This document shows, in pieces, positions 41,800-58,081 of a stretch of 64,000 nt of DNA (positions are counted from its first letter, which is position 1; the number at the start of each line of letters is the position of its first letter). The position numbers and the translations under genes were made by a program. A model generated the notes under the pieces. That model did not search any database. It worked only from the letters and a program-made list of their open reading frames with translations, and had not been told where the DNA came from. The DNA is from Gemmatimonadota bacterium (GTDB lineage: Bacteria > Latescibacterota > UBA2968 > UBA8231), in assembly GCA_018672475.1 (NCBI GenBank), contig JABHFS010000109.1, forward strand, positions 3,713-67,712, written 5' to 3'.

Positions 41800-41868
41800 G
41801 GGTGCTAATATGGGGGCTGGCTCCCGTTCCGGCAAGCGGCGGCCGTCCTATGGTTTTGCTTGGGATTT

Positions 41869-43032
41869 TTAGGCCGGCAGGGTGCGTTTTAGCAAGAGGG
41901 CATCGGCCAAGAATTTGGCGCCCCAATTGGGCAAGGCATAGGGCACATAGGCTCCCCCGATTGGCGCTGAGGCGGGTACGCCTCCGAATAGGCTTGTATT
42001 TTCATTGGTTAAAAATTGACCGGCTTTTACCTGCTCGATAAGGGTCTGGGCAGCGTGGGCGAAATCTGCGGTTTGCGCTGGGGCGAGAGCGTGGAGCTTG
42101 AGCAGGAGGATGGCGAGTTGCGCGTTGCCTGGTAGGCAGGAATGCCGGGCGCGGCCGTGCCAATTTTCGTCGAGTGCAGCGGGCAGCTTGGCTGGGGGTG
42201 CTTGCAGTTGGGCTTGTTGCGCGGTGACTAGTTGCCGCACGTCCGATGAGACGAGGTCGATTAGCTCGTTCTGCGAGGGCGGGCCTAATGCCAGGCCGCA
42301 TTCGAGCAGGCCACGCAGGGTGTAGGCGATGGTATGCGTGATGGGGACTTGTCCCGGTTCGAGGGCCATGTGCGCGAAGCCACCTGCGGGCAAGCGCTGG
42401 ATTTTGAGCCATTGCAGGAAGCGCTCGGCCGCGGCGCGGTAGCTTTTTTCTCCGGTCGCCGCGTGTACTTCTAATAGAGGCCAGGCCACGCGGGTGTGGT
42501 AGGCGCGTGGGGCGTCGAGGTAGGTGTGGCGGGTCCACTTGCCGTCGGGGTCTTGTATGTCGAGCAACCAGTCGGCGGCACGGACCGCTGCGGTCAAGAA
42601 CCTTTCCTCGGCGGTGGCGCGGTAGAGGGCGGTCCAGCCGAGGATAACTTGTCCAGTATTGAAGACGATGGGATAGTCGTTCAGGCCGATGCCGCCGCGC
42701 ACGCCGCCTGAGGGCAACTGTACTTCGATTTCCCATTCGCCGAGTGCTATGGCGCGGTCTGTCTGGTCGACGGCCAACAGGGTCGGGATAATATAGCCGG
42801 TCGTCTCCGGATAGGGGGGCATCCAGCCGCGTTTAAAAAAATAACCGGCCGAGACGCCGCCTGCCACCACGTCTTGGGCGCGACATAGCCAAGAGATGGC
42901 TGCTGCGAGATGCTCGTCGTCGCTAAAGGTCGAAGGCCGAGTCTCTTGCCGGTCGCGCCAGAGCACGGACCAGTGGTGGGGGCGGCTGGCAAGCCGCAGG
43001 TTTTCATAGAGGGCGATAAGATGTTGTTTCAA
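41869..43032 (-). CDS. Hypothetical protein, probably an alpha/alpha-toroid (six-hairpin / prenyltransferase-like) fold
   Basis: 387 aa. It has periodic helical repeats with aromatic/Gly turns: AISWLCRAQD, YPETTGYIIPTLL, FNTGQVILGW, AADWLLDIQDPDGKW. The fold assignment is by eye only. Confidence 0.55.
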   Translation of the reverse strand: MKQHLIALYENLRLASRPHHWSVLWRDRQETRPSTFSDDEHLAAAISWLCRAQDVVAGGVSAGYFFKRGWMPPYPETTGYIIPTLLAVDQTDRAIALGEWEIEVQLPSGGVRGGIGLNDYPIVFNTGQVILGWTALYRATAEERFLTAAVRAADWLLDIQDPDGKWTRHTYLDAPRAYHTRVAWPLLEVHAATGEKSYRAAAERFLQWLKIQRLPAGGFAHMALEPGQVPITHTIAYTLRGLLECGLALGPPSQNELIDLVSSDVRQLVTAQQAQLQAPPAKLPAALDENWHGRARHSCLPGNAQLAILLLKLHALAPAQTADFAHAAQTLIEQVKAGQFLTNENTSLFGGVPASAPIGGAYVPYALPNWGAKFLADALLLKRTLPA

Positions 43033-43051
43033 TTTTGTAGCCGCGGGCGAG

Positions 43052-43084
43052 TTGGTCAGGATTCGCTTCGCTATATATTATAAC
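43052..43084. promoter_or_regulatory. Candidate bidirectional promoter core between the toroid gene and the AAC(3)/ACP/FkbH/GT4 operon
   Basis: Plus strand: TTGGTC (43052-43057), 16-nt spacer, TATATT (43074-43079). On the minus strand, 43077-43082 reads TATAAT. Contains the third copy of TATATTATAAC (43074-43084). Confidence 0.4.
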
Positions 43085-43124
43085 TGATGTTTGATTTTTT
43101 GCACGAGAGGCGAAGGAAGGTGGG

Positions 43125-44060
43125 ATGATCAAGCGGATCTTGCGTCGCATACTGCCAGCTGGGGTATATGGCGTGGGCAAGGCGAGGCTCAAGCGTTTTC
43201 GCGTTCGTCGCCAGTTGCTCAAACCCAAGATCGGAGAGGATGCCATGCGTCGTATTCTCGCCGATGAGTTGCGGCTTGTTCGCGGCGATATCGTATTTGT
43301 GCACAGTTCGGTGGATGCGCTCAACCTCGACTTTCCCTTCTTTAAATTGCTGGGTATGTTGCGCGAAGTTGTCGGAGCAGAAGGAACCCTGCTTTTTCCC
43401 GCGAGCCAGTTGACTGAGCGCCCCGAAACTTGGTTGGCTGGTGGGCAGGTTTTCGATCTCAAGCGCAGCCCGACGTCAATGGGTTTATTGGCCGAGTGGG
43501 CCCGACGCCAACGCGGCAGCGAGCGCAGTATGCACCCGACGCACTCGGTGGTCGCGCAGGGGCCGCTAGCGGTCGAATTGCTCGGCGAGCACCACTGGAG
43601 TCCAGCGCCTTGCGGGGTGCATAGCCCTTATTATAAAATGCTTGAGAAGGGGGGAGTTGTCGTGGGTTTGGGTGTCGACGCGGATGTGCTGACCATGGTG
43701 CATTGCGTCGAAGATGTGCTCGGCGGACGCTTTCCGGTCCAGACGCGGCGTTCCGAGTTATATTCTGCTCGGGTATTGGATATGGAGGGGCACGAGTCCC
43801 TGGTCAAAACGGCCATCGGCCACCCGCGCATGCGCTTTCGCCGCATGTTGGATTTTATGGCGTGCCATATCGACGGACGAGTTTGTCGGAGACTGCAGGT
43901 CGAGGGCGTACCGTTTTATCGAGTAGAAGCTAAGCCTCTATACGAAAGCATGATGACCCTGGCGCAGCGGGGGGTGACGATATATTGGCGCAGCATCCAT
44001 CGGCAGAGTCCCTTTGAAACCATCTTGAGCTATATGGCGGAGAAACTGGAGGCGAGATAG
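43125..44060 (+). CDS. AAC(3)-family (aminoglycoside N3-acetyltransferase-like) N-acyltransferase
   Basis: VFVHSSVDAL, GTLLFPA, MGLLAEWARR, SMHPTHSVVA, SPYYKM and VVGLGVD...TMVHCVEDV follow the Antibiotic_NAT family pattern. Confidence 0.8.
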   Translation: MIKRILRRILPAGVYGVGKARLKRFRVRRQLLKPKIGEDAMRRILADELRLVRGDIVFVHSSVDALNLDFPFFKLLGMLREVVGAEGTLLFPASQLTERPETWLAGGQVFDLKRSPTSMGLLAEWARRQRGSERSMHPTHSVVAQGPLAVELLGEHHWSPAPCGVHSPYYKMLEKGGVVVGLGVDADVLTMVHCVEDVLGGRFPVQTRRSELYSARVLDMEGHESLVKTAIGHPRMRFRRMLDFMACHIDGRVCRRLQVEGVPFYRVEAKPLYESMMTLAQRGVTIYWRSIHRQSPFETILSYMAEKLEAR

Positions 44061-44064
44061 AATT

Positions 44065-44355
44065 TTGCAAAGGCGCGAGAAGATTGCGGCGCTTGTAGGC
44101 GCGGCAATAGACGAACTAAATTTGCAACGAGGTCCAGGTGAAGCGCTGGGCAAGGCCGCGGATACCCTGCTTTTTACCCTGGGTGGTCCGCTTGATTCGC
44201 TGGGTTTGGTCAATCTAATCGCGGATCTGGAAGGTCGGGTGGAGGCTGAATTCGGCGAATGGGTCAACTTGGCGGATGAAACCTTGTTTGCAGGCGAAGG
44301 CAGCCCCTTCCAGAGCGTCGGCCGCTTGGTCGATTATATCGACGGAATCCTATGA
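44065..44355 (+). CDS. Acyl carrier protein-like protein
   Basis: 96 aa. GGPLDSLGLVNLIADLE carries the phosphopantetheine-Ser (DSL) motif. TTG start. The stop overlaps the FkbH start (ATGA). Confidence 0.7.
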   Translation: MQRREKIAALVGAAIDELNLQRGPGEALGKAADTLLFTLGGPLDSLGLVNLIADLEGRVEAEFGEWVNLADETLFAGEGSPFQSVGRLVDYIDGIL

Positions 44356-46025
44356 GCGGTGATGTTTGTCTGCTCTTGGCCGATTTTAACAGCGGTAACC
44401 TCGCGGCCTATTTGCGTAATGACCAAGCGGCACCGCTCTTCGAGGTGGTCGAAGCTCCTTATGATCAAGTGGTGCCGATTCTTGCCGATGCTGGGCACGC
44501 GAGTTGGGCTGCGGGCGCGCAAATCGCGGTAGTGTGGACTCGGCCCGAGGCGGTGAGCCCGACTTTTTCTGCCATCCTGCGCGGTGATGTCGCCGATCTC
44601 GGCCGCTTGGCGGCAGAAGTCGACCGCTATACCGAATTGCTCATCGAAGCCGGCCTTAGGGTGCAATTGATGCTGGTGCCGACTTGGGTCGTGCCGACCT
44701 ATCGCCGTGGTCTGGGCATGTCCGATTTCAGACCCGGCGGTGTCGCGCATGCCCTGATGACAATGAATGGCCGCCTTGTCGCGGCATTGGCCGGTGATCC
44801 GCGCGTCTATGTACTTGATGCGCAGAAGTGGTGCGAGAGGGCGGGCGCCAAAGCCTTTGACCCCAAGCTTTGGTATTTGGGCAAGATCCCCTTTGGTCAC
44901 GAAGTGTTCAAGGCGGCGATTCCGGATATAAAGGCCGCGCTGAGGGGCGTGAATGGCCGCGCGAAGAAGTTGCTGGTCGTCGATCTCGACGATACGCTGT
45001 GGGGGGGAATTGTCGGCGAGGTAGGGGTGGAGGGTTTGGTATTGGGAGGGCACGACCGGGTGGGCGAGGCCTTTCTCGATTTTCAACGGGCGTTGAAGGC
45101 GCTGGTGCGTCGCGGGGTGCTCTTGGGCATTGTGAGCAAGAATGAGGAGCAGGTGGCGCTGTCGGCGATCAATAGCCACCCGGAGATGGTATTGGGGCGA
45201 GCGGATTTTGCCGGCTGGCGGATCGATTGGACCGATAAGGCGCATCATATCGCCAGCTTGGCCGCGGAACTTAATCTGGGGCTGCAGGATGTCGTTTTTA
45301 TCGACGACAACCCTGCCGAACGCGCCCGTGTGCGCGAAGCTCTACCCGAAGTCCTGGTCCCAGATTGGCCGGCCGACCCATCGCACTATGCCGCGACCCT
45401 AGAGCAGATGGTCTGCTTCGATGCGCCGGACCGGACCTGGGAAGACGGCGCGCGCAATCAGATGTATGCCGAGGAAAAAGAAAGGCACACTGATCGGGAG
45501 GCTGTGGGGGCACTTGATGAATGGTTGCATACCCTGGCGTTGCAGGTTTCGGCCGAACGGGTGAATCGGACCAATGTGCGGCGGACGATTCAGCTATTGA
45601 ACAAGACCAATCAGATGAACCTCAGTACCCGGCGTTTGAGTGAGGCCGAGTTGGTCGAATGGGTAGGGCAGGAGGGGCGGGAGGCGTGGGTTTATCGCGT
45701 TGAGGATCGCTTTGGCGATTCGGGCTTGACGGGCATCCTCAGTTTACAGGCCGTCAGCGGTGGCGGTCGGGTGGTAGACTTCGTGCTCAGTTGCCGGGTG
45801 ATGGGACGCGGTGTGGAGGAAACGCTGCTTCACCATGCGGTTGCGCGTGCACAGGTTTTGGGTTGGGAAGAATTGCTAGTTGAGTATTTGCCGACAGAAA
45901 AGAACAAACCCTGCCTCGATTTGATGAGCCGAGCGCTACAACCACTAAAGGGAGAATTGCCGCTCTTTCGCTGGCCGATCGCATCTGAATTTCCGCTGCC
46001 CGGCCACGTCGAGTTTCGCTCGTGA
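44352..46025 (+). CDS. FkbH-like HAD-IIIC family protein
   Basis: LLVVDLDDTLWGGIVGEVG, GIVSKNEE and FIDDNPAER (HAD-IIIC). The C-terminal domain has DRFGDSGLTGI and VLSCRVMGRGVE, as in FkbH-type glyceryl-loading enzymes. Confidence 0.85.
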   Translation: MSGDVCLLLADFNSGNLAAYLRNDQAAPLFEVVEAPYDQVVPILADAGHASWAAGAQIAVVWTRPEAVSPTFSAILRGDVADLGRLAAEVDRYTELLIEAGLRVQLMLVPTWVVPTYRRGLGMSDFRPGGVAHALMTMNGRLVAALAGDPRVYVLDAQKWCERAGAKAFDPKLWYLGKIPFGHEVFKAAIPDIKAALRGVNGRAKKLLVVDLDDTLWGGIVGEVGVEGLVLGGHDRVGEAFLDFQRALKALVRRGVLLGIVSKNEEQVALSAINSHPEMVLGRADFAGWRIDWTDKAHHIASLAAELNLGLQDVVFIDDNPAERARVREALPEVLVPDWPADPSHYAATLEQMVCFDAPDRTWEDGARNQMYAEEKERHTDREAVGALDEWLHTLALQVSAERVNRTNVRRTIQLLNKTNQMNLSTRRLSEAELVEWVGQEGREAWVYRVEDRFGDSGLTGILSLQAVSGGGRVVDFVLSCRVMGRGVEETLLHHAVARAQVLGWEELLVEYLPTEKNKPCLDLMSRALQPLKGELPLFRWPIASEFPLPGHVEFRS

Positions 46026-47137
46026 AAACCATCGCGCATTGCATCTCCCCCTACTTGCAGACCGCCGGCCCTTGGGTCTACGAGCAAATCCGCCGGCTCG
46101 AGCGCTTTCGCCCTGTTGTTTTGACCCAGGGCGCTTGTAATCTCGAACACTATCCGGTTGAGCCGCTGTACTCGGCTGAAGACTTCCCGCCGTTAAAAAA
46201 ACTCTGCAATAGGATCTGGCGTAAAACGACGAATAGCTACCCCTTCTATAAAGGTATTTTACAGCGCGAGAACGCGGCGTTGATCCACGCGCATTTCGGC
46301 TATGAGGCGTGCCGGCTGTTGGCCAGCAAAAAGGCGAGCGGCTTGCCGCTATTGACGACCTTCTACGGGGCGGACGCGACGGAGTATCCGCGTTATCCGC
46401 AATGGCGTGAACGCTATCGGCACCTCTTCGCTGCCGGTGAACTCTTTCTGGCCGAAGGTGGGGCGATGGCGCAGAAACTGGTCGATCTCGGTTGTCCGCA
46501 AGACAAGGTGCGCGTATGGCGATTGGGTGTGGATATCGAGCGGATTGAATGCATTGAGCGTTCGCCGGGCGAGCGGGTATGCTTTCTCATCTGTGCGGGT
46601 TTTAAAGAGAAAAAGGGCATCCCTTATGCGCTTAAAGCTCTCGCTGTAGCCCAGGCCAACCGACCCTTCCCCTATGCGCTGACCTTGGTCGGCGATGGGG
46701 AGGACCGACCGCAGATCGAAGCGCTGGTTGACGAGTTGGGTTTGCGCCCGTGTACCACTTTCAAAGGCATGATGCCCTATGAGCAAGTGCTGGCGGAATT
46801 ACCCCGGCATGATATCCTATTGCAGACCAGCGTTACGGCGCAAAACGGCGACGGCGAGGGCGGCGCCCCGGTGATCCTGCTCGACGCGCAAGCTTCGGGA
46901 ATGCCGGTATTGGCTACAACGCACGGGGATATCCCGGAGTATGTGCGCGACGGCGAAAGCGGCTATTTGGCCCAGGAGCGAGATGTGGAGGGTCTGGCCG
47001 AACGCATGTCGCTCTTGGTGGATCAGTCGCAACGTTGGGCTGAAATGGGGAGGATGGGGCGGTCTCATGTTGAGGACCGATATGGGGCAAGGCGGCAGAT
47101 CCAGGCGTTGGAGCGAATCTACGACGGGTTGGTCTGA
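46022..47137 (+). CDS. Glycosyltransferase, GT4 (GT-B) family
   Basis: The GTG start overlaps the FkbH stop (GTGA). EGGAPVILLDAQASGMPVLATTHGDIPEYV is the E-X7-E region. Confidence 0.85.
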   Translation: MKTIAHCISPYLQTAGPWVYEQIRRLERFRPVVLTQGACNLEHYPVEPLYSAEDFPPLKKLCNRIWRKTTNSYPFYKGILQRENAALIHAHFGYEACRLLASKKASGLPLLTTFYGADATEYPRYPQWRERYRHLFAAGELFLAEGGAMAQKLVDLGCPQDKVRVWRLGVDIERIECIERSPGERVCFLICAGFKEKKGIPYALKALAVAQANRPFPYALTLVGDGEDRPQIEALVDELGLRPCTTFKGMMPYEQVLAELPRHDILLQTSVTAQNGDGEGGAPVILLDAQASGMPVLATTHGDIPEYVRDGESGYLAQERDVEGLAERMSLLVDQSQRWAEMGRMGRSHVEDRYGARRQIQALERIYDGLV

Positions 47138-47273
47138 GCGTTGAGTGGCGGCGTAATCGACGGTATCGACGAGGGCGATATTAACCGTCAGGTCCGTTCC
47201 GGGGGATTGAAGACCTGTGGTTCGTCGATAAAAATATAGGGTGTGTAAAGGAGAAAAAGCGGACCGCGATATC

Positions 47274-47822
47274 CTACTCTTCTTCTTCTTCTTCGTCCTC
47301 AATCCAGTAGCGTTGGTACTCTTCGAAATAAGCTAAGGTCTCGAAACCCTCCATGCGGTCTAGGAAGAGCACGCTGTCGAGATGGTCGATCTCGTGTTGC
47401 AGGACGCGGGCGAAAAAACCTTCGGCTGCAAATTCGACCTGCTGCCCTTCAACGTCGAACCCTTTGACTTCCACCGCCGCCGAGCGGGGGACGACACCGC
47501 GGATGTCGGGGATGCTCAGGCACCCCTCCCACCCATCTACTCGTTCGTCCGACATGGCGGTAAGTTCCGGGTTGAACAGAACGGTTAGCGGAATAACCCC
47601 CTCTTCTTCTGGATCGACATCGGGCATCCCCAAGACGATCAAGCGCAGGGGTTGATAGACTTGCGGCGCTGCGAGTCCAATACCTTCGTAGTCGACCATC
47701 GTTTCGACCATATCCGCGACTAGGCGCTGTAATGGCGGGTTTGTCATTTCTTCGGGCGGTATGTCCTTTGCGCGTTGCCGCAACACGGGGTGCCCCATGC
47801 GCGATACTTTGAGAATGGCCAT
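47274..47822 (-). CDS. def: Peptide deformylase with an acidic C-terminal tail
   Basis: GIGLAAPQV, EGCLSIP and QHEIDHL motifs. The C-terminus is YWIEDEEEEEE. Confidence 0.95.
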   Translation of the reverse strand: MAILKVSRMGHPVLRQRAKDIPPEEMTNPPLQRLVADMVETMVDYEGIGLAAPQVYQPLRLIVLGMPDVDPEEEGVIPLTVLFNPELTAMSDERVDGWEGCLSIPDIRGVVPRSAAVEVKGFDVEGQQVEFAAEGFFARVLQHEIDHLDSVLFLDRMEGFETLAYFEEYQRYWIEDEEEEEE

Positions 47823-47890: not shown

Positions 47891-48514
47891 TTATTTGAGG
47901 CGTTTTTTGAGTTTTTGCGCGCGTTTGGCTTTGAGGTGTCTAAGCACCTTATTGCGGGCCTCGGCCGAGAATTGGCGCAGCAGGAAGGTCGCGCTCTGAT
48001 CGTCGAGCGCGGCGACTTCCAGGGCGATTTCTTTGGCGGGCAGGGCGACCAGCGACTGCGCCAGCGCTTTCAGCATGGCGTCGCGGTCTTTCTTTAAGGC
48101 TTTTAGTTCGCGCCCTAACTCTTGCTTAAGCGTGCCGAGTTGGTTCATGGCGGCCTGATTGGGCGCCAGGTTGGCCGGTTGGCTCGCGGCGGATGCCGCA
48201 GGTTGTTGCGCCGATGGGGAGGAGGATAGTGTTTCGCTTGCCAGGGTTGGTGTCGGCGTCGGCTGTTCTGGGGTTGCGGCGTTGGGCGAGGTGGTCGATT
48301 GCGGCCGACGTGCCGCACGCGTTTTGCGGGTGCTTGGGCGGCGTTTTTCTGTACGGGTCTCCACAGGTGTTTCTTGTTGGATGCGGCTTTGCGCCACTCG
48401 GCGGCGGGTGGGGCGTTTGGCATTGGTGTCTACTGCCGCCAGCATAATAGCCAGAATCATCCCGAAGGAGAGGGTCATGCCTGCGAATATCAACAGGAGC
48501 GATTTGGGGTTCAT
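47891..48514 (-). CDS. Membrane-anchored protein with a Pro/Thr/Ser linker and a MgtE_N/MotE-like C-terminal helical domain (tentative)
   Basis: From the ATG at 48514: TM helix LLLIFAGMTLSFGMILAIMLAAV, a low-complexity linker, and the C-terminus PAKEIALEVAALDDQSATFLLRQFSAEARNKVL. Function uncertain. Confidence 0.5.
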   Translation of the reverse strand: MNPKSLLLIFAGMTLSFGMILAIMLAAVDTNAKRPTRRRVAQSRIQQETPVETRTEKRRPSTRKTRAARRPQSTTSPNAATPEQPTPTPTLASETLSSSPSAQQPAASAASQPANLAPNQAAMNQLGTLKQELGRELKALKKDRDAMLKALAQSLVALPAKEIALEVAALDDQSATFLLRQFSAEARNKVLRHLKAKRAQKLKKRLK

Positions 48515-48586
48515 GGCAAAATTTGCTGCTGTTGTGGGCACGTTTGGCGACTCCACCTCTGAATTTAATATACGGTGAAGTAGGTC

Positions 48587-48645
48587 AAGTGGTGTAAAAA
48601 CAGATATATAAACTTCTTTGCCTACTCTTTTGGTATAAAAACAAG
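48587..48645. repeat. Two copies of the motif (AA)GTGGTRTAAAAACAR; a third copy lies at 50330-50347
   Basis: AAGTGGTGTAAAAACAG (48587-48603) and TGGTATAAAAACAAG (48631-48645), compared with AAGTGGTATAAAAACAAG (50330-50347). All are on the plus strand, in AT-rich intergenic DNA flanking the flagellar region. Confidence 0.5.
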
Positions 48646-48660
48646 CAAAGAATAGGCCAA

Positions 48661-49236
48661 TTATTGGGCGGGCGAGCGGCAACAGCGGAAACCGACTAGG
48701 TCGAGGCGGTATTCAGGCCCCAGATGATAGCCATAGCGGGCGTCGGATCGGGCGAAGTTGACACTTTGAAAATAGGACCCACCGCGTACGACTCGCCAAA
48801 GGTCGGGTTGTGAATACCAAGAGGCCGTCCACTCCCAGGCATTGCCGATCATATCGTGGACTCCATAGTCGTTAGTACAGCGCTCATAGTCCCCGCTCGG
48901 GGCTAAACCCGGACCGCGTTGCCATGCTCCATCAACTTTGATGGGCGTATTGCAGCGTCCCGATTCTAATTGATCCCCATAGGAATACTTGAAATGCTGC
49001 GGACCAGTGCAGGCTTTTTGCCACTCTTGTTCGGTGCAAAGTCTTTTGTCTTGCGCTGCACAAAGCGATTCGGCCTGGCGCCAGGTTACGTCGACTTTGG
49101 GCAATAGGCCGCGCTGATTGGGGTACTCGTATACATCTATATAAAAGGTCCCTTCAATCAGTGCCATATTTCCTTCACCAGCTGAGATCAGTGAGGGCAA
49201 GACCAGTAGGATTGAGAGGGTTAATAGTCTATTCAT
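48661..49236 (-). CDS. Small secreted FGE-sulfatase-domain protein
   Basis: Signal MNRLLTLSILLVLPSLISA. FYIDVYEYP, RLCTEQEWQKAC, GNAWEWT, VVRGGSY and GFRCC. Confidence 0.8.
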   Translation of the reverse strand: MNRLLTLSILLVLPSLISAGEGNMALIEGTFYIDVYEYPNQRGLLPKVDVTWRQAESLCAAQDKRLCTEQEWQKACTGPQHFKYSYGDQLESGRCNTPIKVDGAWQRGPGLAPSGDYERCTNDYGVHDMIGNAWEWTASWYSQPDLWRVVRGGSYFQSVNFARSDARYGYHLGPEYRLDLVGFRCCRSPAQ

Positions 49237-50448: not shown

Positions 50449-51240
50449 ATGATCGAAGGACTATTTATCTCAGCATCGGGCATGTTGCCAAAGGCTACGC
50501 AACAAGAGTCGATTGCAAATAATCTTGCAAATGCCGAAGTACCTGGTTTTAAAAAGGATAACCTCTTTATGCGCGAGGTGCGCGAGGCGATGAAACGGCA
50601 ATCTGGCGACTATCCAGATTGGCGCATCAATCGCTTTGAAGGGGCCTGGACCGACCATGAGCAAGCCAGATTGCGCAAAACAGGCGATGTATTCGATATG
50701 GCTTTAAGCGGCAAAGGTTTCTTTGCGCTACAGACGTCTTCTGGTGTGCAATATACCCGCAATGGCAATTTTTCTAAAAATGACCAGGGCATGTTGGTCA
50801 ATCCGCTGGGGCATCAAGTCCTCGATGAGGGTGGGGCGCCGATCGTTATACCTGAAAACATAACAGCGCCGATCATCGATGGGGCAGGGGTTGTGCGAGT
50901 GCGCGATGAAGCCACGGGGGAAGATACCGTTATAGCTACGATACAAATAGTTGATTTTCCAGAGCTTTATGATAAAAATGCTATGGCGCAGACCCCCTAT
51001 CAGAATCCGCTAAGAAAGTCCAAGGACGGGCTCTTTATTCCTCACCCCGCGACCTCACAGGTACCGGCTGATGAGGTGGAAATTGTACAGGGGTTTTTAG
51101 AAGAGTCGAATGTTGAACCGGTATTGGAAATGGTCAGAATGATCGACACTTTCCGCTCCTACGAGGCGGAACAACGAGCCATTCAGGTCCAAGACAGCAC
51201 TTTGGAGCGGGCCGTCAACGATCTCGGTCGCGTCAGTTAA
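50449..51240 (+). CDS. flgF: Flagellar basal-body rod protein FlgF
   Basis: N-terminal SIANNLANAEVPGFKK rod motif and a conserved C-terminal helix. Lies directly upstream of flgG. Confidence 0.85.
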   Translation: MIEGLFISASGMLPKATQQESIANNLANAEVPGFKKDNLFMREVREAMKRQSGDYPDWRINRFEGAWTDHEQARLRKTGDVFDMALSGKGFFALQTSSGVQYTRNGNFSKNDQGMLVNPLGHQVLDEGGAPIVIPENITAPIIDGAGVVRVRDEATGEDTVIATIQIVDFPELYDKNAMAQTPYQNPLRKSKDGLFIPHPATSQVPADEVEIVQGFLEESNVEPVLEMVRMIDTFRSYEAEQRAIQVQDSTLERAVNDLGRVS

Positions 51241-51264
51241 TAGATAGAGAAGGGGAGACATAAG

Positions 51265-52053
51265 ATGAGTAGGGCACTGTATACCGCGGCCACAGGGATG
51301 ATCGCTCAGCAGATGAACGTCGATAATATTGCCAATAACTTGGCGAATGTTAATACGACGGGTTATAAGAAGAGCAAAATGGAATTTCAGGATTTGCTCT
51401 ACCAACAATTGCGCCTTGCCGGTGCGACACAAGCCGAGGGCGCCCAGGTGCCGGTGGAATTGCAAATCGGCTATGGCACGCGCCCCGTGGCAACACAGCG
51501 GATCTTCTCGCAGGGCACCATCGTGCCGACGGGTAATCCACTCGACGTTTCGATCGACGGCAATGGCTTTTTACAGGTGACCTTGCCCGACGGTACGACA
51601 TCCTTTACTCGCGACGGGGCATTGAAGATGGGGTCCGACGGCACCATCGTCACCTCTGACGGTTATGCGCTCGAACCGCAAATCACCGTGCCGCAGGATG
51701 CTACGGATATCAATATCTCGTCCAATGGCGAAGTGTCCGTCAAGCTCCCGGGTACTGCGGCCTTTCAGACGGTGGGGCAGTTGGAACTGGCTCGATTCAT
51801 CAATCCGGCCGGCCTCAAGACGATCGGGCGGAACCTGATGCTCGAGACGCAAGCCTCGGGTGTGGCGATTATCGGCGCGCCGGACGGAGAAGGATTCGGC
51901 AAGCTGTCGCAGCGCTTTTTGGAACTGTCGAATGTGGAAGTAGTCGACGAGATGGTGAGCATGATCGTCGCCCAGCGGGCCTATGAGATCAATTCCAAGG
52001 CGATTCAGACTTCCGAGGAAATGCTCTCGAACGCCAACAACCTGAAGCGATAG
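51265..52053 (+). CDS. flgG: Flagellar distal rod protein FlgG
   Basis: ALYTAATGMIAQQMNVDNIANNLANVNTTGYKKSKMEFQDLLYQ and C-terminal LELSNVEVVDEMVSMIVAQRAYE are close to E. coli FlgG. Confidence 0.95.
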   Translation: MSRALYTAATGMIAQQMNVDNIANNLANVNTTGYKKSKMEFQDLLYQQLRLAGATQAEGAQVPVELQIGYGTRPVATQRIFSQGTIVPTGNPLDVSIDGNGFLQVTLPDGTTSFTRDGALKMGSDGTIVTSDGYALEPQITVPQDATDINISSNGEVSVKLPGTAAFQTVGQLELARFINPAGLKTIGRNLMLETQASGVAIIGAPDGEGFGKLSQRFLELSNVEVVDEMVSMIVAQRAYEINSKAIQTSEEMLSNANNLKR

Positions 52054-52063
52054 GGCTAAAACG

Positions 52064-52774
52064 ATGAAAAAGGCGATTTGGATTTTTCTCATATTGAGTT
52101 TTTCCGGCGGTCCAGCCTTGGCGCAAAGCAAGGTCTCTGCTTCCGATATCACCAAGGCCGTCGAGGTGTTCGTGCAACAAGAACTTGAGGGTAGCCTCGA
52201 AGACGAAATGCGCATTGAGATCAATACTCGTTGGCAAGGGGTAGTAGAATTGGAGTCGGCCGGTGAGCCGCAGATCCGCGTGCGTCGCGCTTCGTCGCGG
52301 CCGCTGCGTGGACCGACGGTCTTGCGAGTGGGCATCGACGTCGGCGGGCAGACGCTGAAGACGATGAGTGTGACCGCCGATATCCGCTATCTGCGACCGG
52401 TGCTGGTCGCCAGCTATATGTTGAGCCGGGGCGAGGCGCTGGAAGAATCGATGGTTGAAATGGTGGAACGCGATATCACCACCTTGCGCAACGGTTATTT
52501 CACCGAACCCGCCCTGTTGCAGGATATGCAGACGCGCAGAAGTTTGGCCGCGGGGGCCGTCTTGACTCGCAACCACGTCTCGGCCATTCCCGTAGTGAAA
52601 CGCGGCACGGCGGTCGAACTCGTCGCGCGCACCAAGCGATTCAGCGCCACGGCATTGGGTGAGGCGATGCAGGATGGTGGGGTTGGTGAGCGGATACGGG
52701 TCAAGAACAGCGACTCGGGCAAGATTCTCTATGGGCAGATACTCGACGCCCATACCATTCAGATCGGGCTATAG
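52064..52774 (+). CDS. flgA: Flagellar P-ring assembly chaperone FlgA
   Basis: Signal peptide. C-terminal SAF-like region VKRGTAVELVA...G.ERIRVKNSDSGKILYG. Located between flgG and flgH. Confidence 0.8.
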   Translation: MKKAIWIFLILSFSGGPALAQSKVSASDITKAVEVFVQQELEGSLEDEMRIEINTRWQGVVELESAGEPQIRVRRASSRPLRGPTVLRVGIDVGGQTLKTMSVTADIRYLRPVLVASYMLSRGEALEESMVEMVERDITTLRNGYFTEPALLQDMQTRRSLAAGAVLTRNHVSAIPVVKRGTAVELVARTKRFSATALGEAMQDGGVGERIRVKNSDSGKILYGQILDAHTIQIGL

Positions 52775-52786
52775 GGGGCGCAGTTG

Positions 52787-53368
52787 ATGTTGAGCGTGAA
52801 AAAGGGAATGCAAATGTCCGCGCTAGTCGTCGCTCTTGCGGCGACCGCCTCATCGGCGCAGATCCAGTCGATGTTCGCGGACCCCAAGGCCAACCAGGTC
52901 GGTGACGCGTTGACGGTGATTATTCAGGAGAACGCTTCGGCTTCGAACCGGACATCGACGAAGACGGCGAAAAACAGCAAGACGGGAATCAGCAGCACAA
53001 TACCGGGTGCCGGCAATATCCTGGGTTTCATCCCGCTGCATTCGCTCGACAGCGGATTTGACAACGAGTACACGGGCGATGCATCGACTTCGCGCAGTGC
53101 GCGGTTGACGGCACGGATGACGGTGACCGTCGTGAGCAAGAAACCCAATGGAGACCTGATCATCGAGGGCGTGCGCACCTTAAAGATCAATGGAGAGAAC
53201 GAGGCTATTTATGTAAATGGCTCGGTCAACCCGGCGATGGTGCGCCGCGACAATACGGTGCTTTCGTCGAGTATCGCCGACTTGCAGATCGAATACACTG
53301 GCAAGGGCACTATCACCCAGGGTACTAGGCCAGGGGTAGTCGTACGCTTTATTAACTGGATTTTTTAG
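52787..53368 (+). CDS. flgH: Flagellar L-ring protein FlgH (no lipobox Cys)
   Basis: LFADPKA-type motif (SMFADPKANQVGDALTVIIQEN), ARMTVTVV..PNGDLIIEG and IADLQIEYTGKG. Start ambiguous (TTG 52784, ATG 52787, ATG 52814). Confidence 0.85.
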   Translation: MLSVKKGMQMSALVVALAATASSAQIQSMFADPKANQVGDALTVIIQENASASNRTSTKTAKNSKTGISSTIPGAGNILGFIPLHSLDSGFDNEYTGDASTSRSARLTARMTVTVVSKKPNGDLIIEGVRTLKINGENEAIYVNGSVNPAMVRRDNTVLSSSIADLQIEYTGKGTITQGTRPGVVVRFINWIF

Positions 53369-53371
53369 GCT

Positions 53372-54496
53372 ATGCTAGCGGGAGGATTCATCAGAGTTGG
53401 GGTCTTGGCGGTCTTGGCGGTCTTGGCGGTCGTTTGCGGTATGTGTAGTCGCGTGGAAGCGGTGGCATCGGTCCGGATCAAAGACCTCGCGAAAGTGCAG
53501 ACGGCACAGGATATACAGTTGACCGGCGTCGGTTTGATTATCGGACTTGAAGGGACGGGGGATGGTCGTCGGGCTGAATTCACTTTTCAGATGATGGCCA
53601 ATATGATGCATCGGATGAAAGTGGCCGTCACGCCCGAGCAGGTTCGAGTGCGCAATGTTGCCGGCGTCAGTGTTACCGGGACTTTGACGCCGCACCAGCG
53701 CAAAGGCAGTCGTATCGACGTGCATGTGGCCTCGATAGGCGACGCCTCGTCGCTACAGGGCGGCACGCTGCTTTTATCGACGATGATGGGCCCGGACGGT
53801 ACGGTATACGCCACGGCGCAAGGGCCGATCTCGATTGGTGGTTTCAACCTCGGCGGCGGAGCTGCTGGATCGGTGCGCAAGAATCACACGGTAGTAGGTG
53901 CGGTGCCGAACGGGGGAATCGTAGTTGAGGAAATGTTCAAACAGGAAGAACTGGATAAGGATGTAACGCTAATGTTGTACGATGCGGATTGGACGACGGC
54001 CTCGCGTGTGGCCTTCGCCATCGGTGAGCACTTCGGCGAGGGGGACTTGGCGCATGCGATGGACCCGGGAACGATTGTGGTGGCACTTAACTCGATGCGC
54101 GGTCAACCTGACGCGATCGTCGATTTCGTCGCCGAGTTGGAAAAGGTCGAAGTAATCCCCGATCTGCCAGCCAGGGTAGTCGTCAACGAACGCACCGGCA
54201 CGGTGATTATCGGCGAGAACGTATCGGTTTCGGCTGTGGCTATGTCGCATGGTAGTCTCCAACTAAAGATCCCCGGTGATGACGGTGGCGATGTTTTCGG
54301 TGGCGAGGCCGAAGTCGTCGAGGAGCCCGATCGCCTGCATCCGATCATCAGTTCGTTCGACGTCGGGGCTATGCCCACGGTGCGGGAATTGGTGCGCAAT
54401 CTCAACGCATTGGGTGTTACCCCGCGCGATTTGATCTCGATTTTGCAGGCGTTGAAGACGGCCGGTGCATTACGCGCCGAATTGATCATCCAGTAG
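53372..54496 (+). CDS. flgI: Flagellar P-ring protein FlgI
   Basis: VRIKDLA, LTGVGLIIGLEGTGD, SSLQGGTLL, RVVVNERTGTVIIG and VTPRDLISILQALK.AGAL.AEL. Confidence 0.95.
   Translation: MLAGGFIRVGVLAVLAVLAVVCGMCSRVEAVASVRIKDLAKVQTAQDIQLTGVGLIIGLEGTGDGRRAEFTFQMMANMMHRMKVAVTPEQVRVRNVAGVSVTGTLTPHQRKGSRIDVHVASIGDASSLQGGTLLLSTMMGPDGTVYATAQGPISIGGFNLGGGAAGSVRKNHTVVGAVPNGGIVVEEMFKQEELDKDVTLMLYDADWTTASRVAFAIGEHFGEGDLAHAMDPGTIVVALNSMRGQPDAIVDFVAELEKVEVIPDLPARVVVNERTGTVIIGENVSVSAVAMSHGSLQLKIPGDDGGDVFGGEAEVVEEPDRLHPIISSFDVGAMPTVRELVRNLNALGVTPRDLISILQALKTAGALRAELIIQ
53401..53427 (+). repeat. 3 x 9-nt perfect tandem repeat (GGTCTTGGC) in the flgI signal-peptide region
   Basis: GGTCTTGGC repeated three times, followed by a partial GGTC. 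It is in frame and encodes the hydrophobic core VLAVLAVLAV. Confidence 0.9.
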
Positions 54497-54508
54497 GAGG
54501 ATGGCGAC

Positions 54509-54943
54509 GTGAACGATTTAATGAACATTGCGACATCGCTGAAGGGGACGAATTTCACGGGTAAGCAGAAGACGGTGGATGTCAAATCGTTTCGGGGGGC
54601 CGAGACCATTGAGGAGCGGCGCGAAGCGCTCAGGGAGTCGGCCAAGCAGTTCGAGGCGGTCTTCGTTCACCAGATGATCTCGGCGATGCGTAAGACCGTC
54701 AGCGAATCGAGTCTGACGCCCAAGAGCAATGGCCAGAAGATTTTTGAAAGCATGTTGGATGAGGAGTGGAGTAAGAAACTGGTGAATAAATCCGGGTCAG
54801 GGAGTCTGAGCGAGATACTCTATCGGCAATTGAGCGCCAATATGGGGCTTGACGAGGCAGAAGACAGCGCCAAAACGCAGGATCAGTTGTGGCCTGCTCC
54901 GCCACCGGTGTTGCCAATAAAAAATAACGGAACACAGAAATGA
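54509..54943 (+). CDS. flgJ: Rod-binding protein (FlgJ N-terminal-domain type, no muramidase domain)
   Basis: QFEAVFVHQMISAMRKT and IFESMLDEEWSKKL are the rod-binding domain. GTG start 8 nt after GGAGG. Only 144 aa. Confidence 0.8.
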   Translation: MNDLMNIATSLKGTNFTGKQKTVDVKSFRGAETIEERREALRESAKQFEAVFVHQMISAMRKTVSESSLTPKSNGQKIFESMLDEEWSKKLVNKSGSGSLSEILYRQLSANMGLDEAEDSAKTQDQLWPAPPPVLPIKNNGTQK

Positions 54944-55443
54944 ATGACCCGGTATTGATAGAGTTGATCGCAGTGATCAACGAGGAAGTGCGCACCTTCC
55001 ATCGGTTGCTGACATCACTGCAGGAAGAGCAGCAGGTCATCATCGAAGACGACTTGGAAGGCATCGAGGAGATTGTCGCCGAGCAACGGCAGTTGGCCGT
55101 CTACGCCCACCAGATCGAAACTCGGCGCATCCAATTGGTCAACGAGTTGGCGTTGTGCCTGGATTTGCAGCCCGATAACGTGAGCTTGAGCCGTTTGGTG
55201 GAAGTGTTAGAAGGACCGCACAGCGAGGAGTTGGCGAATATGCGCGGACAATTACTCGAGCTCAACAGCCAGATTCGCGCGATCAGCGAAAACAATGCTT
55301 TTCTCATCCGTCAGTCGCTGCGTTATACCGACCGCTGCCTCGATATTCTCACCGGGCAGCAGGTCGAGCGCCGCGTTTACGGGCAATTCGGCAAAGCCAA
55401 ACGCAGCGCCGGCGAGCGTTCGCTATTGAACCAGACCGCCTGA
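54940..55443 (+). CDS. flgN: FlgN-family flagellar export chaperone (tentative)
   Basis: 167-aa helical protein (LIAVINEEVRTFHRLLTSLQEEQQVI) directly before flgK. ATGA overlap with flgJ. Confidence 0.6.
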   Translation: MNDPVLIELIAVINEEVRTFHRLLTSLQEEQQVIIEDDLEGIEEIVAEQRQLAVYAHQIETRRIQLVNELALCLDLQPDNVSLSRLVEVLEGPHSEELANMRGQLLELNSQIRAISENNAFLIRQSLRYTDRCLDILTGQQVERRVYGQFGKAKRSAGERSLLNQTA

Positions 55444-55453
55444 GGAAACAAGC

Positions 55454-56878
55454 ATGGCCATCACTTCATCCGCAAGCCACGGCATCGAGATCGGCCGCCG
55501 CGCCCTCCAGGCGCAACAGGCGTCGCTCAACGCGACCGGGAACAATATCGCCAACGTCAACACGCCGGGTTTCTCGCGGCGTCAGGTTCGTTTGGAAAAT
55601 GCCATCTCCAGTGGGCAGAACGGTATTGGATCCGGTGTCGACTTGGAGGGGGTGGCCCGCCAGCGCAGTCGTTTCATCGATGCACAGATGCGGGTGCAGC
55701 AGCAGGTCTTGGGTCGTTGGGAGGTTTTAGAGAGTGCGATCGGCACTATCGAGGCGGTGTTCAATGAGCCGGCTGGTGCGGGGTCGAGCGAGGCGGGAAC
55801 GATTTTCAACGAGCCGTCGGGTTTGGGGCTTTCGGGTTCGTTCAGCCGCTTTTGGAACGCCTGGCAGGATTTGGCGAATGTGCCTGAAAGTGGTGCGGCC
55901 CGCGCGGTGGTGCGGCAAGAGGCCGATTTCATGGTGACCACGCTGCACCAGTATCACGACAAGCTGCGCGATGCTCGCAATGGGATGGACGCGGATGTAA
56001 TGGACGAGGTCTCCGATATCAATGAGATGCTCGACCAGTTGGCCGATATCAATTCGCAAGTGCCACGCGCCTCTTTTGATGGCGGGGATGCTAGTGACCT
56101 GAAGGACCGGCGCGATTTGATCATCGACGAGTTGTCGCGGCGGGTGGATATTTCCCTGACGGAGAGCGACAATGGCCAGATTTCGGTATTGTTGGCCGGG
56201 CACAATCTCTTGCAAGGGGACCATGTTGTTCACTTGCAGGTACGTCAGACGGTCGATGATGGTACGTCGGTCAGTCAGGTCCACTACGCGGACGACGGGA
56301 CACGGGCACGGATCAGTGAAGGCCGCTTGCGCGGTCTGATCGAGGTCCGTGACAATGTCGTGCCGAAGTTGTTGACGAACCTCGACGAGATGGCGGCGGG
56401 CTTGGTCACTGAGATCAATGCCTTGCATCGCACGGGCTTCGGCAAGGACGGCGGAACGGGCGTCAATTTTTTTGATCCGGGTAAGATTGACGCTAGTAAT
56501 ATCGCTGTCGACAACGCCATCCTGTCGAATCTCAATAATATCGCCGCCTCGGCCGATGGCAATACAGGTGATAATGGTATGGCTCTGGCGCTGAGCAGTT
56601 TGCGCAATGGCAATATTCTCTCCGACGGCACTCAGACGATGGAGGGGTTTTACTACGAGATGTTGGGCGAAGTCGGGGCGTTGAGCGGCGAGGCGCAGAC
56701 CATGGCCGAGAACCACAGATTGTTTTCCTCGCAGATCGAGAATCGTCGCCAAAGCGTGCAGGGCGTTTCGCTCAACGACGAGGCATCGCAGTTGATGCTT
56801 TTTCAACGCGCCTATCAGGCGGCGGCACGTACAGTGTCGATCATTGACGAGTTGTTGGAAGTTACGGTCAACATATGA
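55454..56878 (+). CDS. flgK: Flagellar hook-associated protein 1 FlgK
   Basis: N-terminal LNATGNNIANVNTPGFSRR and C-terminal SGVSLNDEASQLMLFQRAYQAAAR. Confidence 0.9.
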   Translation: MAITSSASHGIEIGRRALQAQQASLNATGNNIANVNTPGFSRRQVRLENAISSGQNGIGSGVDLEGVARQRSRFIDAQMRVQQQVLGRWEVLESAIGTIEAVFNEPAGAGSSEAGTIFNEPSGLGLSGSFSRFWNAWQDLANVPESGAARAVVRQEADFMVTTLHQYHDKLRDARNGMDADVMDEVSDINEMLDQLADINSQVPRASFDGGDASDLKDRRDLIIDELSRRVDISLTESDNGQISVLLAGHNLLQGDHVVHLQVRQTVDDGTSVSQVHYADDGTRARISEGRLRGLIEVRDNVVPKLLTNLDEMAAGLVTEINALHRTGFGKDGGTGVNFFDPGKIDASNIAVDNAILSNLNNIAASADGNTGDNGMALALSSLRNGNILSDGTQTMEGFYYEMLGEVGALSGEAQTMAENHRLFSSQIENRRQSVQGVSLNDEASQLMLFQRAYQAAARTVSIIDELLEVTVNI

Positions 56879-56968
56879 TTTGTCGCCGGGAAGTTCACTG
56901 TCCATTAACCGATGGACTTATTTTAAAGAGGCCCCTATATTTGGGGCGATTGAGCAGGAGATAGCGCC

Positions 56969-58081
56969 ATGCGAGTCACGACGGGGATGGCAGTGGGCAC
57001 CCTGACGAATAATTTAGGCCGCTCATACGAGCGTATCACGCGTTTCCAGAATGAACTGTCTTCCGGTACGCGCCTGAATAAGCTCTCCGACGATCCGGCC
57101 GGAGTCGAACGCTCGCTGGCATTGCGCTCGGAACTGCGCAATACCGAACAGTTTCAAAAGAATATTGGCGACGGAGTGGGTTGGTTGCAGTTGAGTGAGG
57201 CGACCCTCAATTCGCTCGAAACACTCTTCGTCGAAGCGCGTGGGCTGGCTGTGCAGGGGGCGACGAGCACTTATAATTCCTCGCAGCGCAACGCCATCGC
57301 CGACCAGGTCGACCAGTTTCTCGAGCACGCCGTTAGCTTGAGCGAAGCTCGCTATCGGGGGCGTTATATATTTTCGGGGACCCAGACCGGCGGCGTGCCC
57401 TATATGCCGAATCGCGATGAGAACGGCAACGCCCTCGATGTCAGGGCTAGCGGCGACACGACCGGCAGCATTGAGCGCGAAGTGACTGACGGGGTTATTA
57501 TGCAGGTCAATATCCCGGGCAGCGAGATTTGGGAAGATCCCAAAGACATCCGGTTGCCTTTGAATACCTTGGCTCGCGGGTTGGGCGCTGAGGATCGGGC
57601 GCAGTTGGACCAGGTCGTCGGGCAGGACCAACAGCTCGATATGGATCGGTTGAACGCGCTATTGGACGGAACAGAAGTGGTGGACCCGCCGATTAGTGAG
57701 GCGGTACATGAGGTTTTGGTGCAGGCGCGTGACTCGTTTGAGGATCAGCAGACCAACCCATTCGATGTGTTGATCGAACTGCGCGACGCTTTGCGCGACA
57801 ATAATGTCGATGACGTGCGGGGCACCTTAAACAAGTTGGCTAATGTGCGCGAGAACATCTCCTCGGTTCGTGGGCTGATCGGCGCCCGGGTTAATCGCAT
57901 GGAGACGACCCAGAACGTGCTCGACCGCATTTCTGTGGAAATGACTTCAATACTGTCTGCCGATGAAGATGTCGATTTGGCTTCCACAATTGTGAATTTG
58001 CGTCAAGAACAAGATGTATTTCAGGCGGCTTTGGCCTCCGGGTCCTCAGTGATTCCCCAATCGCTGATGGACTTCATCTAA
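56969..58081 (+). CDS. flgL: Flagellar hook-associated protein 3 FlgL (flagellin-fold)
   Basis: MRVTTGM, SSGTRLNKLSDDPAG and C-terminal DVDLASTIVNLRQEQDVFQAAL. AGGAG SD 8 nt upstream. Confidence 0.85.
   Translation: MRVTTGMAVGTLTNNLGRSYERITRFQNELSSGTRLNKLSDDPAGVERSLALRSELRNTEQFQKNIGDGVGWLQLSEATLNSLETLFVEARGLAVQGATSTYNSSQRNAIADQVDQFLEHAVSLSEARYRGRYIFSGTQTGGVPYMPNRDENGNALDVRASGDTTGSIEREVTDGVIMQVNIPGSEIWEDPKDIRLPLNTLARGLGAEDRAQLDQVVGQDQQLDMDRLNALLDGTEVVDPPISEAVHEVLVQARDSFEDQQTNPFDVLIELRDALRDNNVDDVRGTLNKLANVRENISSVRGLIGARVNRMETTQNVLDRISVEMTSILSADEDVDLASTIVNLRQEQDVFQAALASGSSVIPQSLMDFI

Follow-up and report, generated by a model that had tools for sequence, protein, structure and literature searches.

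A candidate five-gene cassette for carrier-protein-dependent N-glyceroylation of a glycan sugar, built around an AAC(3)-fold acyltransferase

Known glyceroyl-type systems and the cassette

Delivery of an acyl group from a dedicated carrier protein to a sugar amine is known from the NodB/NodA/NodF(E), LpxC/LpxD and BtrH/BtrI (butirosin) systems, and in the Nod and Lpx systems the transfer follows removal of an N-acetyl group. The folds of NodA, of the left-handed beta-helix protein LpxD and of the papain-like BtrH are unrelated to that of the AAC(3) aminoglycoside N-acetyltransferases. Here, we analyse a five-gene cassette that is a candidate for such a system with an AAC(3)-fold transferase. 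It lies at positions 41869-47137 of a stretch of 64,000 nucleotides (called the window for simplicity) from contig JABHFS010000109.1 of assembly GCA_018672475.1, a Gemmatimonadota bacterium placed by GTDB in the Latescibacterota. We propose that the cassette builds a glyceryl unit on a carrier protein and places it as an N-glyceroyl (2,3-dihydroxypropanoyl) group on the amine of a glycan sugar, a reading whose steps we all infer from sequence comparison and to which we give a probability of roughly 0.6.

The closest known counterpart is the Cj1295-Cj1304 locus of Campylobacter jejuni, compared here by annotation. It shares with the window an AAC(3)-annotated gene, an fkbH-domain gene and a link to the flagellum, and its genes Cj1299 and Cj1304 we take to be carrier-protein genes. 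The product there is an N-linked amide of a C3 hydroxy acid on a flagellar sugar, the roles of the individual genes being predicted. Cj1296/7 is annotated as aminoglycoside N3'-acetyltransferase and belongs to the flagellin glycosylation locus (PMC3025981, Table 1), and cj1302, the fkbH-domain gene, occurs as a pseudogene in strain 12664, where dimethylglyceric-acid (DMGA) sugars are absent (PMC7099621). Formation of 5-N-(2,3-di-O-methylglyceroyl)-pseudaminic acid depends on Cj1295, which was proposed to remove the 5-N-acetyl group (PMC3068675); the flagellin of C. jejuni 11168 carries 5-(2,3-di-O-methylglyceroyl)amino-pseudaminic acid (Pse) (Logan 2009, as cited in PMC3068675). Our literature search found no paper that assigns the acyl donor or the transferase for DMGA-Pse. 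Unlike Cj1295-Cj1304, the cassette and its neighbours contain, as judged with Pfam, no Cj1295-like aminopeptidase-fold gene, no methyltransferase, no FabH and no adjacent pseudaminic or legionaminic acid genes; in place of the Cj1295-type, methyltransferase and nonulosonate genes of C. jejuni, the window has an (alpha/alpha)6-barrel gene and a GT4 glycosyltransferase gene.

A natural N-glyceroyl amino sugar on surface (S-layer) glycoproteins is Pse5Am7Gra of Tannerella forsythia, which is linked to the window by chemistry only. The gene for its glyceroyl group 'remains elusive' (PMC6120980). In a metagenome-assembled genome (MAG) of a Tannerella sp., one locus (L044) holds AAC(3)-like, deacetylase-like and KAS III-like genes, and no carrier open reading frame was detected within 5 kb by hidden Markov model (HMM).

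The loading side is described for FkbH/OzmB with FkbJ/OzmE, from the pathways to methoxymalonyl-acyl carrier protein (ACP) and tetronates. OzmB converts 1,3-bisphosphoglycerate via phosphoglyceryl-S-enzyme and glyceryl-S-enzyme to glyceryl-ACP (PMC9057759). The FkbH domain, the HAD motifs, a conserved cysteine and an adjacent carrier of ~95 residues are also present in the window. Unlike the FkbH/OzmB systems, the window has no downstream dehydrogenases, methyltransferase or polyketide synthase, and its carrier is DltC-like and sub-threshold for the Pfam PP-binding family. Literature searches found no paper joining FkbH and O-antigen, and for the combination of FkbH, aminoglycoside acetyltransferase and ACP only one unrelated genome paper.

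The unit consists of a divergent barrel gene (41869-43032), called toroid below, and four co-directional, coupled genes (43125-47137). Together with the associated features of the window, these are:

41869-43032, minus strand: (alpha/alpha)6-barrel (toroid) gene, 387 residues, divergent from the operon
43033-43124, no strand: intergenic region of 92 bp, likely the control region, with a sigma-70-like hexamer pair at 43053-43081 (plus strand)
43125-44060, plus strand: AAC(3)-fold (Antibiotic_NAT) acyltransferase gene, 311 residues, PF02522
44065-44355, plus strand: gene for a divergent acyl/peptidyl carrier protein, 96 residues, TTG start, Ser45 codon at 44197-44199
44352-46025, plus strand: long-form FkbH-like gene, 557 residues, TIGR01686, Cys481 codon at 45792-45794
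46022-47137, plus strand: GT4 (GT-B fold) glycosyltransferase gene, 371 residues, last in the operon, PF00534 and PF13439
59359-64000, plus strand: two giant multi-glycosyltransferase/TPR genes, possibly linked, outside the operon, the second running out of the window

An earlier reading made from the sequence alone (the sequence-only reading) had described four tightly linked genes, the last three with overlapping stops and starts, and on this point the open reading frame map and the junction sequences agree. The AAC(3)-like gene ends with TAG at 44058-44060 and the carrier gene begins with TTG at 44065, which confirms the reported spacing of 4 nucleotides; the carrier/FkbH junction is an ATGA overlap (44352-44355) and the FkbH/GT4 junction a GTGA overlap (46022-46025). 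The divergence of the operon from the toroid gene was seen as well, and we count the barrel gene into the unit. Scanning 42900-47400 for promoters and terminators gave counts not above those of shuffled sequences (1 promoter-like site in the intergenic region versus a shuffle mean of 2.0), so the scan provides no evidence.

The cassette is genuine, accessory and conserved as a unit. MAGs labelled Latescibacterota, Gemmatimonadota or Planctomycetota yielded homologues of the AAC(3)-like protein with 47-71% identity, and the order toroid, AAC(3)-like, carrier, FkbH, GT4 is kept in every locus with at least 47% identity and enough flanking DNA. The same five genes also occur in a different chromosomal context, beside a Wzx flippase and with a TylF-type O-methyltransferase inserted after FkbH (L014/L020). 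Within the genus as defined by GTDB, 25 genomes were sampled. The same five of them proved to contain the AAC(3)-like gene, the FkbH gene and the toroid gene alike, and none of the three was found in the other 20, many of which are single-contig assemblies. Two cassette-free genomes (G001, G011) keep the flanks, i.e. CBM9, FGE-sulfatase and deformylase genes on one side and GNAT, RpiA and DctP genes on the other, and the slot between them is filled only by a gene for a 2-oxoacid:ferredoxin oxidoreductase of 1200 residues. The shared distribution and the retained flanks indicate that the unit is gained or lost whole. The triad of FkbH, ACP and AAC(3) named in the sequence-only reading is conserved as a unit in the closer loci and in the second context.

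Near-identical copies of the stretch were recovered from 14 or more metagenome runs of marine or seawater origin, which belong to many studies. Metatranscriptome contigs with at least 99% identity (4 runs, 3 studies) bridge the junctions AAC(3)/carrier (X17, X19) and carrier/FkbH (X15, X16). Coverage by the contigs of the RNA libraries is patchy, with much of the toroid gene and parts of the FkbH and GT4 genes uncovered, and these gaps are not interpretable. The bridging contigs give weak support for transcription as a unit, carry-over of DNA being possible.

The AAC(3)-fold enzyme and its carrier protein

The AAC(3)-like protein matches PF02522 (Antibiotic_NAT) with an E value of 3e-34 (119 bits versus a cut-off of 25), and AAC(3) enzymes of the PDB match it down to E 4e-12. 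It belongs to the same fold family as the AAC(3) N-acetyltransferases, FrbF and YokD, with which it has the HSS and HP motifs and the His-x-x-Glu pair in common. The members of this family N-acylate amines of sugar-like substrates, and those known use acetyl-CoA. The catalytic pair corresponds to H193/E196 in a VHCVED motif, which aligns with the LLHHAE/VLHYAE motifs of PDB entries 7lap and 7lao, and the pair is kept in nearly all of 73 related loci. The clade of the window enzyme is unlike AAC(3), FrbF and YokD in having a basic N-terminal arm of 45 residues (net charge +13 for residues 1-45), the VHCVED motif, carrier-protein neighbours and NCBIfam scores below the cut-offs; the AAC_3 model NF033082 reaches 71 bits versus a cut-off of 270, and every subtype model stays far below its cut-off. 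Cys194, next to the catalytic histidine, is invariant in the close-clade alignment A1. Covalent catalysis via this residue was considered and is not proposed, since carrier-linked relatives have Val, Ser or Ala at this position (L037, L039 and the Muribaculaceae loci).

AAC(3)-like domains were also encountered in longer frames. One with ~33% identity (residues 48-196) lies in frames of ~880-940 residues in nearly every genome of the genus (e.g. G000:C36:12581-12991). A genome of the same class (G040:C2:60603-62744) contains two AAC(3)-like matches 1.2 kb apart, one of them in a frame of 525 residues, which suggests a fused AAC(3)-like form.

The 96-residue open reading frame that follows the acyltransferase gene scores below the gathering threshold of the Pfam PP-binding family PF00550 (12.7 versus 20.8 bits), its orthologues reaching 14-15 bits. 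Its phosphopantetheine serine is Ser45 in GGPLDSLGL, the invariant serine of the LDSLG motif in the family alignment A4 (11 sequences). When the A4 profile was compared with the PDB, all 27 matches were carrier proteins, the best being DltC (E 1e-3) with the serines aligned, and hhalign of the family against the classical ACPs adjoining related genes gave an E value of 1.3e-4 and a probability of 54%. The protein has a net charge of -9. Carriers of the same type precede long-form FkbH genes in other phyla (L013) and occur without FkbH in L038, and an Anaerolineae-type locus has an open reading frame of 102 residues in the position of the carrier gene. One ACPS-type phosphopantetheinyl transferase is encoded elsewhere in the genome.

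We surveyed the neighbourhoods of 73 AAC(3)-like loci retrieved with the clade alignment, scoring a carrier as present when an open reading frame within 5 kb matched our carrier-protein HMM with E < 1e-3. Carriers were found in 27 of the 31 loci with at least 36% identity. Of the 42 remoter loci nine had a carrier, all nine together with a deacetylase-like neighbour and KAS III or FkbH; none was detected within 5 kb in the other 33, generic AAC(3) homologues included, and the distant AAC(3) homologues P0043-P0045 have no carrier-protein context. Three kinds of acyl supply were seen beside the AAC(3)-like gene: FkbH with ACP (L030, L031, L061, L069), AMP-ligase (acyl ligase) with ACP (L026, L038), and KAS III with ACP, accompanied or not by a ligase or SDR (L003, L037, L043). 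Judged from these gene neighbourhoods, what stays constant is the AAC(3)-like gene and what varies is the acyl supply.

Five of the cassettes, small and stand-alone, are from Bacteroidota (L026, L030, L037, L038, L043). They combine an acyl-ACP supply (ligase/KAS III/FkbH and ACP), a deacetylase-like protein of ~340 residues and the AAC(3)-like gene, contain no glycosyltransferase and lie outside obvious glycan loci. The ~340-residue partner resembles a divergent polysaccharide deacetylase (weak PF01522 match; its Atlas neighbours are only a lead). This gene content suggests that an acetyl group is removed before the amine is reacylated, following the logic of the Nod and Lpx systems; the window cassette differs in this respect, as no deacetylase-like gene was found in it.

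The complex of the AAC(3)-like enzyme with the carrier was modelled in three runs and compared with three controls, with a calibration set of 80 solved complexes and 110 mismatched pairs. The interface score ipSAE was 0.68 (0.66-0.73 in the individual runs) and no control exceeded 0.01; in the calibration set, 58 of the 80 solved complexes and 2 of the 110 mismatched pairs attained the mark, counts which are rough here because own alignments were used. At least 79% of the contacts agreed between runs, and the predicted local distance difference test (pLDDT) was at least 87 for the partners, with 88 for the carrier in the complex model. In the model, Ser45 of the carrier contacts enzyme residues 62-64, just past the HSS motif, as well as residue 72, G120 and L121, carrier D71 is placed against R128-R130 of the enzyme, and residues 27-35 of the arm are also in contact. 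The charges of carrier (-9) and arm (+13) are complementary. The model supports binding of the carrier to the enzyme and does not show it, and we know of no similar solved complex.

The use of ACP by an AAC(3)-fold enzyme, put forward in the sequence-only reading, is backed both by the carrier neighbours with their three loaders and by the complex model that passed its controls, and we propose that the AAC(3)-fold protein is a carrier-protein-dependent N-acyltransferase. Broader still, the AAC(3)-fold clade may consist of widespread, unrecognised carrier-protein-dependent sugar N-acyltransferases, which would make N-glyceroyl groups where the loader is FkbH and which would appear here in a minimal form, with barrel and GT4 and a flagellar glycan as target; we regard this wider claim as an even bet.

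The proposed loader, the probable sugar-acting enzymes and the flagellar context

The FkbH-like protein matches the FkbH domain model TIGR01686 with 271 bits (cut-off 146.65; model positions 2-314 of 323, residues 204-525) and the HAD-IIIC model TIGR01681 with 53.5 bits (cut-off 35.75). Its N-terminal domain (residues ~1-200) is an extra one; a HAD-IIIC phosphatase domain with DLDDT at 211-215 follows, and the C-terminal domain carries Cys481 within SCRVMGRG. The 12 sequences of alignment A3, which extends down to 25% identity, are invariant in DxDxT (D211, D213, T215), S262-K263-N264, K296, D318-D319 and S480-C481-R482; the sequence-only reading had asked whether catalytic residues are missing, and all HAD motifs as well as Cys481, the putative catalytic cysteine, are in place. 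A PDB sequence search retrieved only 3slr (Bacteroides BF1531), which covers the HAD part (residues 193-357), and no solved FkbH C-terminal domain on which Cys481 could be placed. This gene is the only one with an FkbH domain found in the genome, and no FkbH domain was found in 14 named control genomes. Long-form FkbH-like proteins form more than 5000 clusters at E < 1e-10, and those inspected lie in glycosyltransferase-rich loci. From its domains and by analogy with OzmB, we propose that the FkbH-like protein is the glyceryl loader of the carrier.

The toroid protein has weak Pfam matches to GH127 and SQHop_cyclase_C, and its AlphaFold2 model (pLDDT 97) is an (alpha/alpha)6 barrel. Foldseek relates this model to a polysaccharide lyase, GH88 hydrolases and sugar 2-epimerases (TM-scores 0.6-0.7, ~12% identity), indicating that the protein is probably a sugar-acting enzyme of the epimerase or hydrolase type. 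The toroid gene adjoins the AAC(3)-like gene in all close loci, in Skermanella and in genome G026. Its family numbers 2208 representatives at E <= 0.001, among them fusions to GT4 domains (P0167, P0172, P0208, P0231). Other fusions, in other organisms, are with formyltransferase domains (P0241, P0228; ~660-690 residues) and with radical-SAM/SPASM and methyltransferase modules (P0180, P0188; ~1400-1470 residues).

The GT4 protein matches PF13439 (51 bits) and PF00534 (82 bits); its best NCBIfam matches, WcaL and BshA, are far below their cut-offs and no equivalog is reached. It is 55-78% identical across all complete cassettes and 47% identical to the protein encoded beside the toroid/AAC(3)-like pair in G026. 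Skermanella (L047) has the pair of toroid and AAC(3)-like genes, and G026 (L091), in which no FkbH was found, has the pair together with GT4. From these gene sets we read the barrel, the amine-acylating enzyme and GT4 as the core, and the carrier with FkbH as a module that would set the acyl group.

The sequence-only reading had located the operon 3 kb from both the flagellar genes and the giant glycosyltransferase/TPR genes; the distance is right for flgF, 3.3 kb downstream (50449), and wrong for the glycosyltransferase/TPR genes, which start 12.2 kb away (59359). According to Pfam, the first giant gene encodes a GT2-GT4-TPR protein of 1081 residues and the second a GT2/TPR protein of 1381 residues. 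Both lie between csrA and three tandem flagellin genes situated just past the end of the window, and beyond it (L097) the three flagellins are followed by a FliD of 1219 residues. Judged by gene order, this layout is that of a flagellin glycosylation island. The whole flagellar system (window 50449-58640 and beyond) looks accessory in the genus, FlgI being found in 4 of the 25 genomes. Among these 25, orthologues of FlgI (P-ring) and of the 1081-residue gene were found only in G000, G015, G016 and G023, i.e. in four of the five cassette carriers, and the fifth (G017) is only 58% complete. Both are present as well in G026, which belongs to a different family and contains toroid, AAC(3)-like and GT4 genes as a set. 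Of four further cassette genomes reached via their loci, three have FlgI, which was again found in G023 too. The flagellum as a possible target, raised in the sequence-only reading, receives indirect support from this phyletic co-variation with FlgI and the giant genes. We favour a flagellar glycan as the target in the window organism, at somewhat short of even odds, and another envelope glycan is the next, rather less probable, candidate.

Besides flgL, the genome has 8 flagellin-type genes. A search of the genome (92% complete) for PF01973 gave no flagellin nonulosonate transferase of the Maf type.

The proposed pathway, its alternatives and the surroundings of the cassette

In the pathway we propose, the FkbH-like enzyme would act as deduced from OzmB/FkbH: it would take a C3 unit from 1,3-bisphosphoglycerate onto Cys481, its HAD domain would remove the phosphate, and the glyceryl unit would then be handed over to the carrier, onto the phosphopantetheine attached to Ser45. 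Through its basic N-terminal arm and the surface around the HSS motif, as in the complex model, the AAC(3)-fold enzyme would dock the acidic carrier, and His193 and Glu196 would transfer the glyceryl group to a free sugar amine. GT4 and the barrel enzyme would act on the same sugar or glycan, the former by glycosyl transfer and the latter by processing of the epimerase or hydrolase type. A plain glyceryl group is expected as the final acyl group, since methyltransferase, dehydratase and reductase genes are all missing from the cassette. An ACP-delivered, glyceroyl-type N-acyl sugar is what the sequence-only reading had envisaged, and as far as evidence from sequence goes this overall picture is supported.

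If the wider claim on the AAC(3)-fold clade holds, the clade would comprise functional analogues of NodA and LpxD, and the genes still lacking for amino sugars of the glyceroyl type, such as Pse5Am7Gra of Tannerella and DMGA-Pse of Campylobacter, would be accounted for. An antibiotic-resistance fold would also be extended to carrier-protein-dependent glycan tailoring. The combination of loader, carrier and AAC(3)-fold transferase is a candidate for the glyceroyl chemistry, where papers assign at most a putative de-acetylating step (PMC3068675). To this the window adds a minimal gene set free of tailoring enzymes and with a conserved barrel/GT4 core, a docking model in which Ser45 of the carrier faces the HSS-motif surface and the basic arm, and an accessory flagellar system, in a marine lineage of high abundance, with which the cassette co-varies.

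Several observations weigh against this pathway or against its flagellar target. Cys481 is only the putative counterpart of the acyl-bearing thiol of OzmB, and the window protein is longer than OzmB (557 versus 366 residues) by ~190-200 N-terminal residues, which form an extra domain. Toroid/AAC(3)-like sets, some with GT4, occur without FkbH or ACP in G026, G028 and Skermanella, indicating that the enzyme family can use another donor, probably acyl-CoA. Amino-sugar pathway genes are missing from the cassette, and the strong DegT-family matches of the genome (~9) and its 2 matches to NeuB are located on other contigs. FlgI was not found in the cassette-bearing genome G041, which has the Wzx/O-methyltransferase variant, nor in G028, where toroid and AAC(3)-like genes are present. 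A single joint loss within one subclade may lie behind the flagellar co-variation among the relatives. Cassette and flagellar cluster occupy separate slots, however, a point that qualifies the joint-loss account, and backbone genes kept by the non-flagellated relatives separate the cassette from the flagellar genes.

In a first alternative, the AAC(3)-like protein would be a plain N-acetyltransferase using acyl-CoA (acetyl-CoA), and the glyceryl-carrier would feed some other step, e.g. direct use of the glyceryl unit by the FkbH C-terminal domain or GT4, yielding an O-glyceroyl ester or a glycosyl-glycerate. It would account for the G026 (L091) and Skermanella (L047) loci, in which toroid, AAC(3)-like and GT4 genes have no FkbH or carrier gene nearby, and it agrees with the failure to find FkbH in G026 or G028 and with the appearance of BshA, which glycosylates a hydroxy acid, among the closest GT4 families by score, far below cut-off as the match is. 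We nevertheless consider it unlikely, as the cassette offers no other acyltransferase-type enzyme, the carrier gene begins only 4 nucleotides past the stop of the AAC(3)-like gene, the clade adjoins carriers with three unrelated loaders, and the modelled Ser45 docks on the enzyme in runs whose controls were passed.

A second alternative, in our judgement just as improbable, concerns the product, which would be a small soluble glycoside or glycolipid (e.g. an N-glyceroyl-hexosamine metabolite) and no decoration of a surface glycan. The neighbours of the cassette in the window are indeed housekeeping genes (RpiA, GNAT, deformylase), the cassette has a single glycosyltransferase and lacks a flippase, a polymerase and an initiating transferase, and the related Bacteroidota cassettes are likewise devoid of glycosyltransferases and glycan-locus neighbours. 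The L014/L020 version adjoins a Wzx flippase, however, relatives of the toroid are fused to GT4 and formyltransferase domains as is typical of glycan loci, and the cassette co-varies with the flagellar and giant glycosyltransferase/TPR genes, all of which speaks against this alternative.

Far less probable than either is a supply of a glycolate- or glycerate-derived unit by the FkbH/carrier pair for polyketide or tetronate synthesis, in the manner of methoxymalonyl-ACP. This is the only FkbH-type role that has been characterised biochemically (OzmB, PMC9057759), but no ketosynthase, FkbK/FkbI-type dehydrogenase, O-methyltransferase or polyketide synthase was found in or near the cassette, the neighbours are GT4 and a carbohydrate-type barrel, and the inspected members of the more than 5000 long-form FkbH-like clusters are in glycosyltransferase-rich loci. 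A role of the AAC(3)-like gene in aminoglycoside resistance, with its adjacency to the other genes due to chance, might be concluded from the PF02522 family and the PDB AAC(3) matches and is scarcely credible in view of 71 bits against the 270-bit AAC_3 cut-off, the clade-specific arm, the translational coupling to the carrier gene and the strictly conserved synteny.

The surroundings of the cassette were inspected in the window and in relatives. Regions L092 and L095 of G001 contained nothing relevant, and the flagellar cluster is not beside the CBM9 gene there. In relatives (L016:3113-6691, L093:3072-6689), the GNAT gene and the cassette slot are separated by a gene of ~1200 residues whose product is a fused 2-oxoacid:ferredoxin oxidoreductase (TPP_enzyme_C, POR, DUF6537); this gene is missing from the corresponding window position (41835-41869). 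An open reading frame of 263 residues with a weak MgtE_N match (47891-48682, minus strand) lies between the deformylase and FGE-sulfatase-like genes. It has counterparts in L016, L017 and L022, which bear both cassette and flagella, and no match in the syntenic regions of G001/G011; it may be a member of the flagellar accessory set. Further upstream in the window (18369-22619, plus strand), a fusion protein of 1416 residues combines a fatty-acyl reductase (NAD_binding_4/Sterile) with AMP-binding and PlsC-type acyltransferase domains and is followed by Lgt and OYE-type genes.

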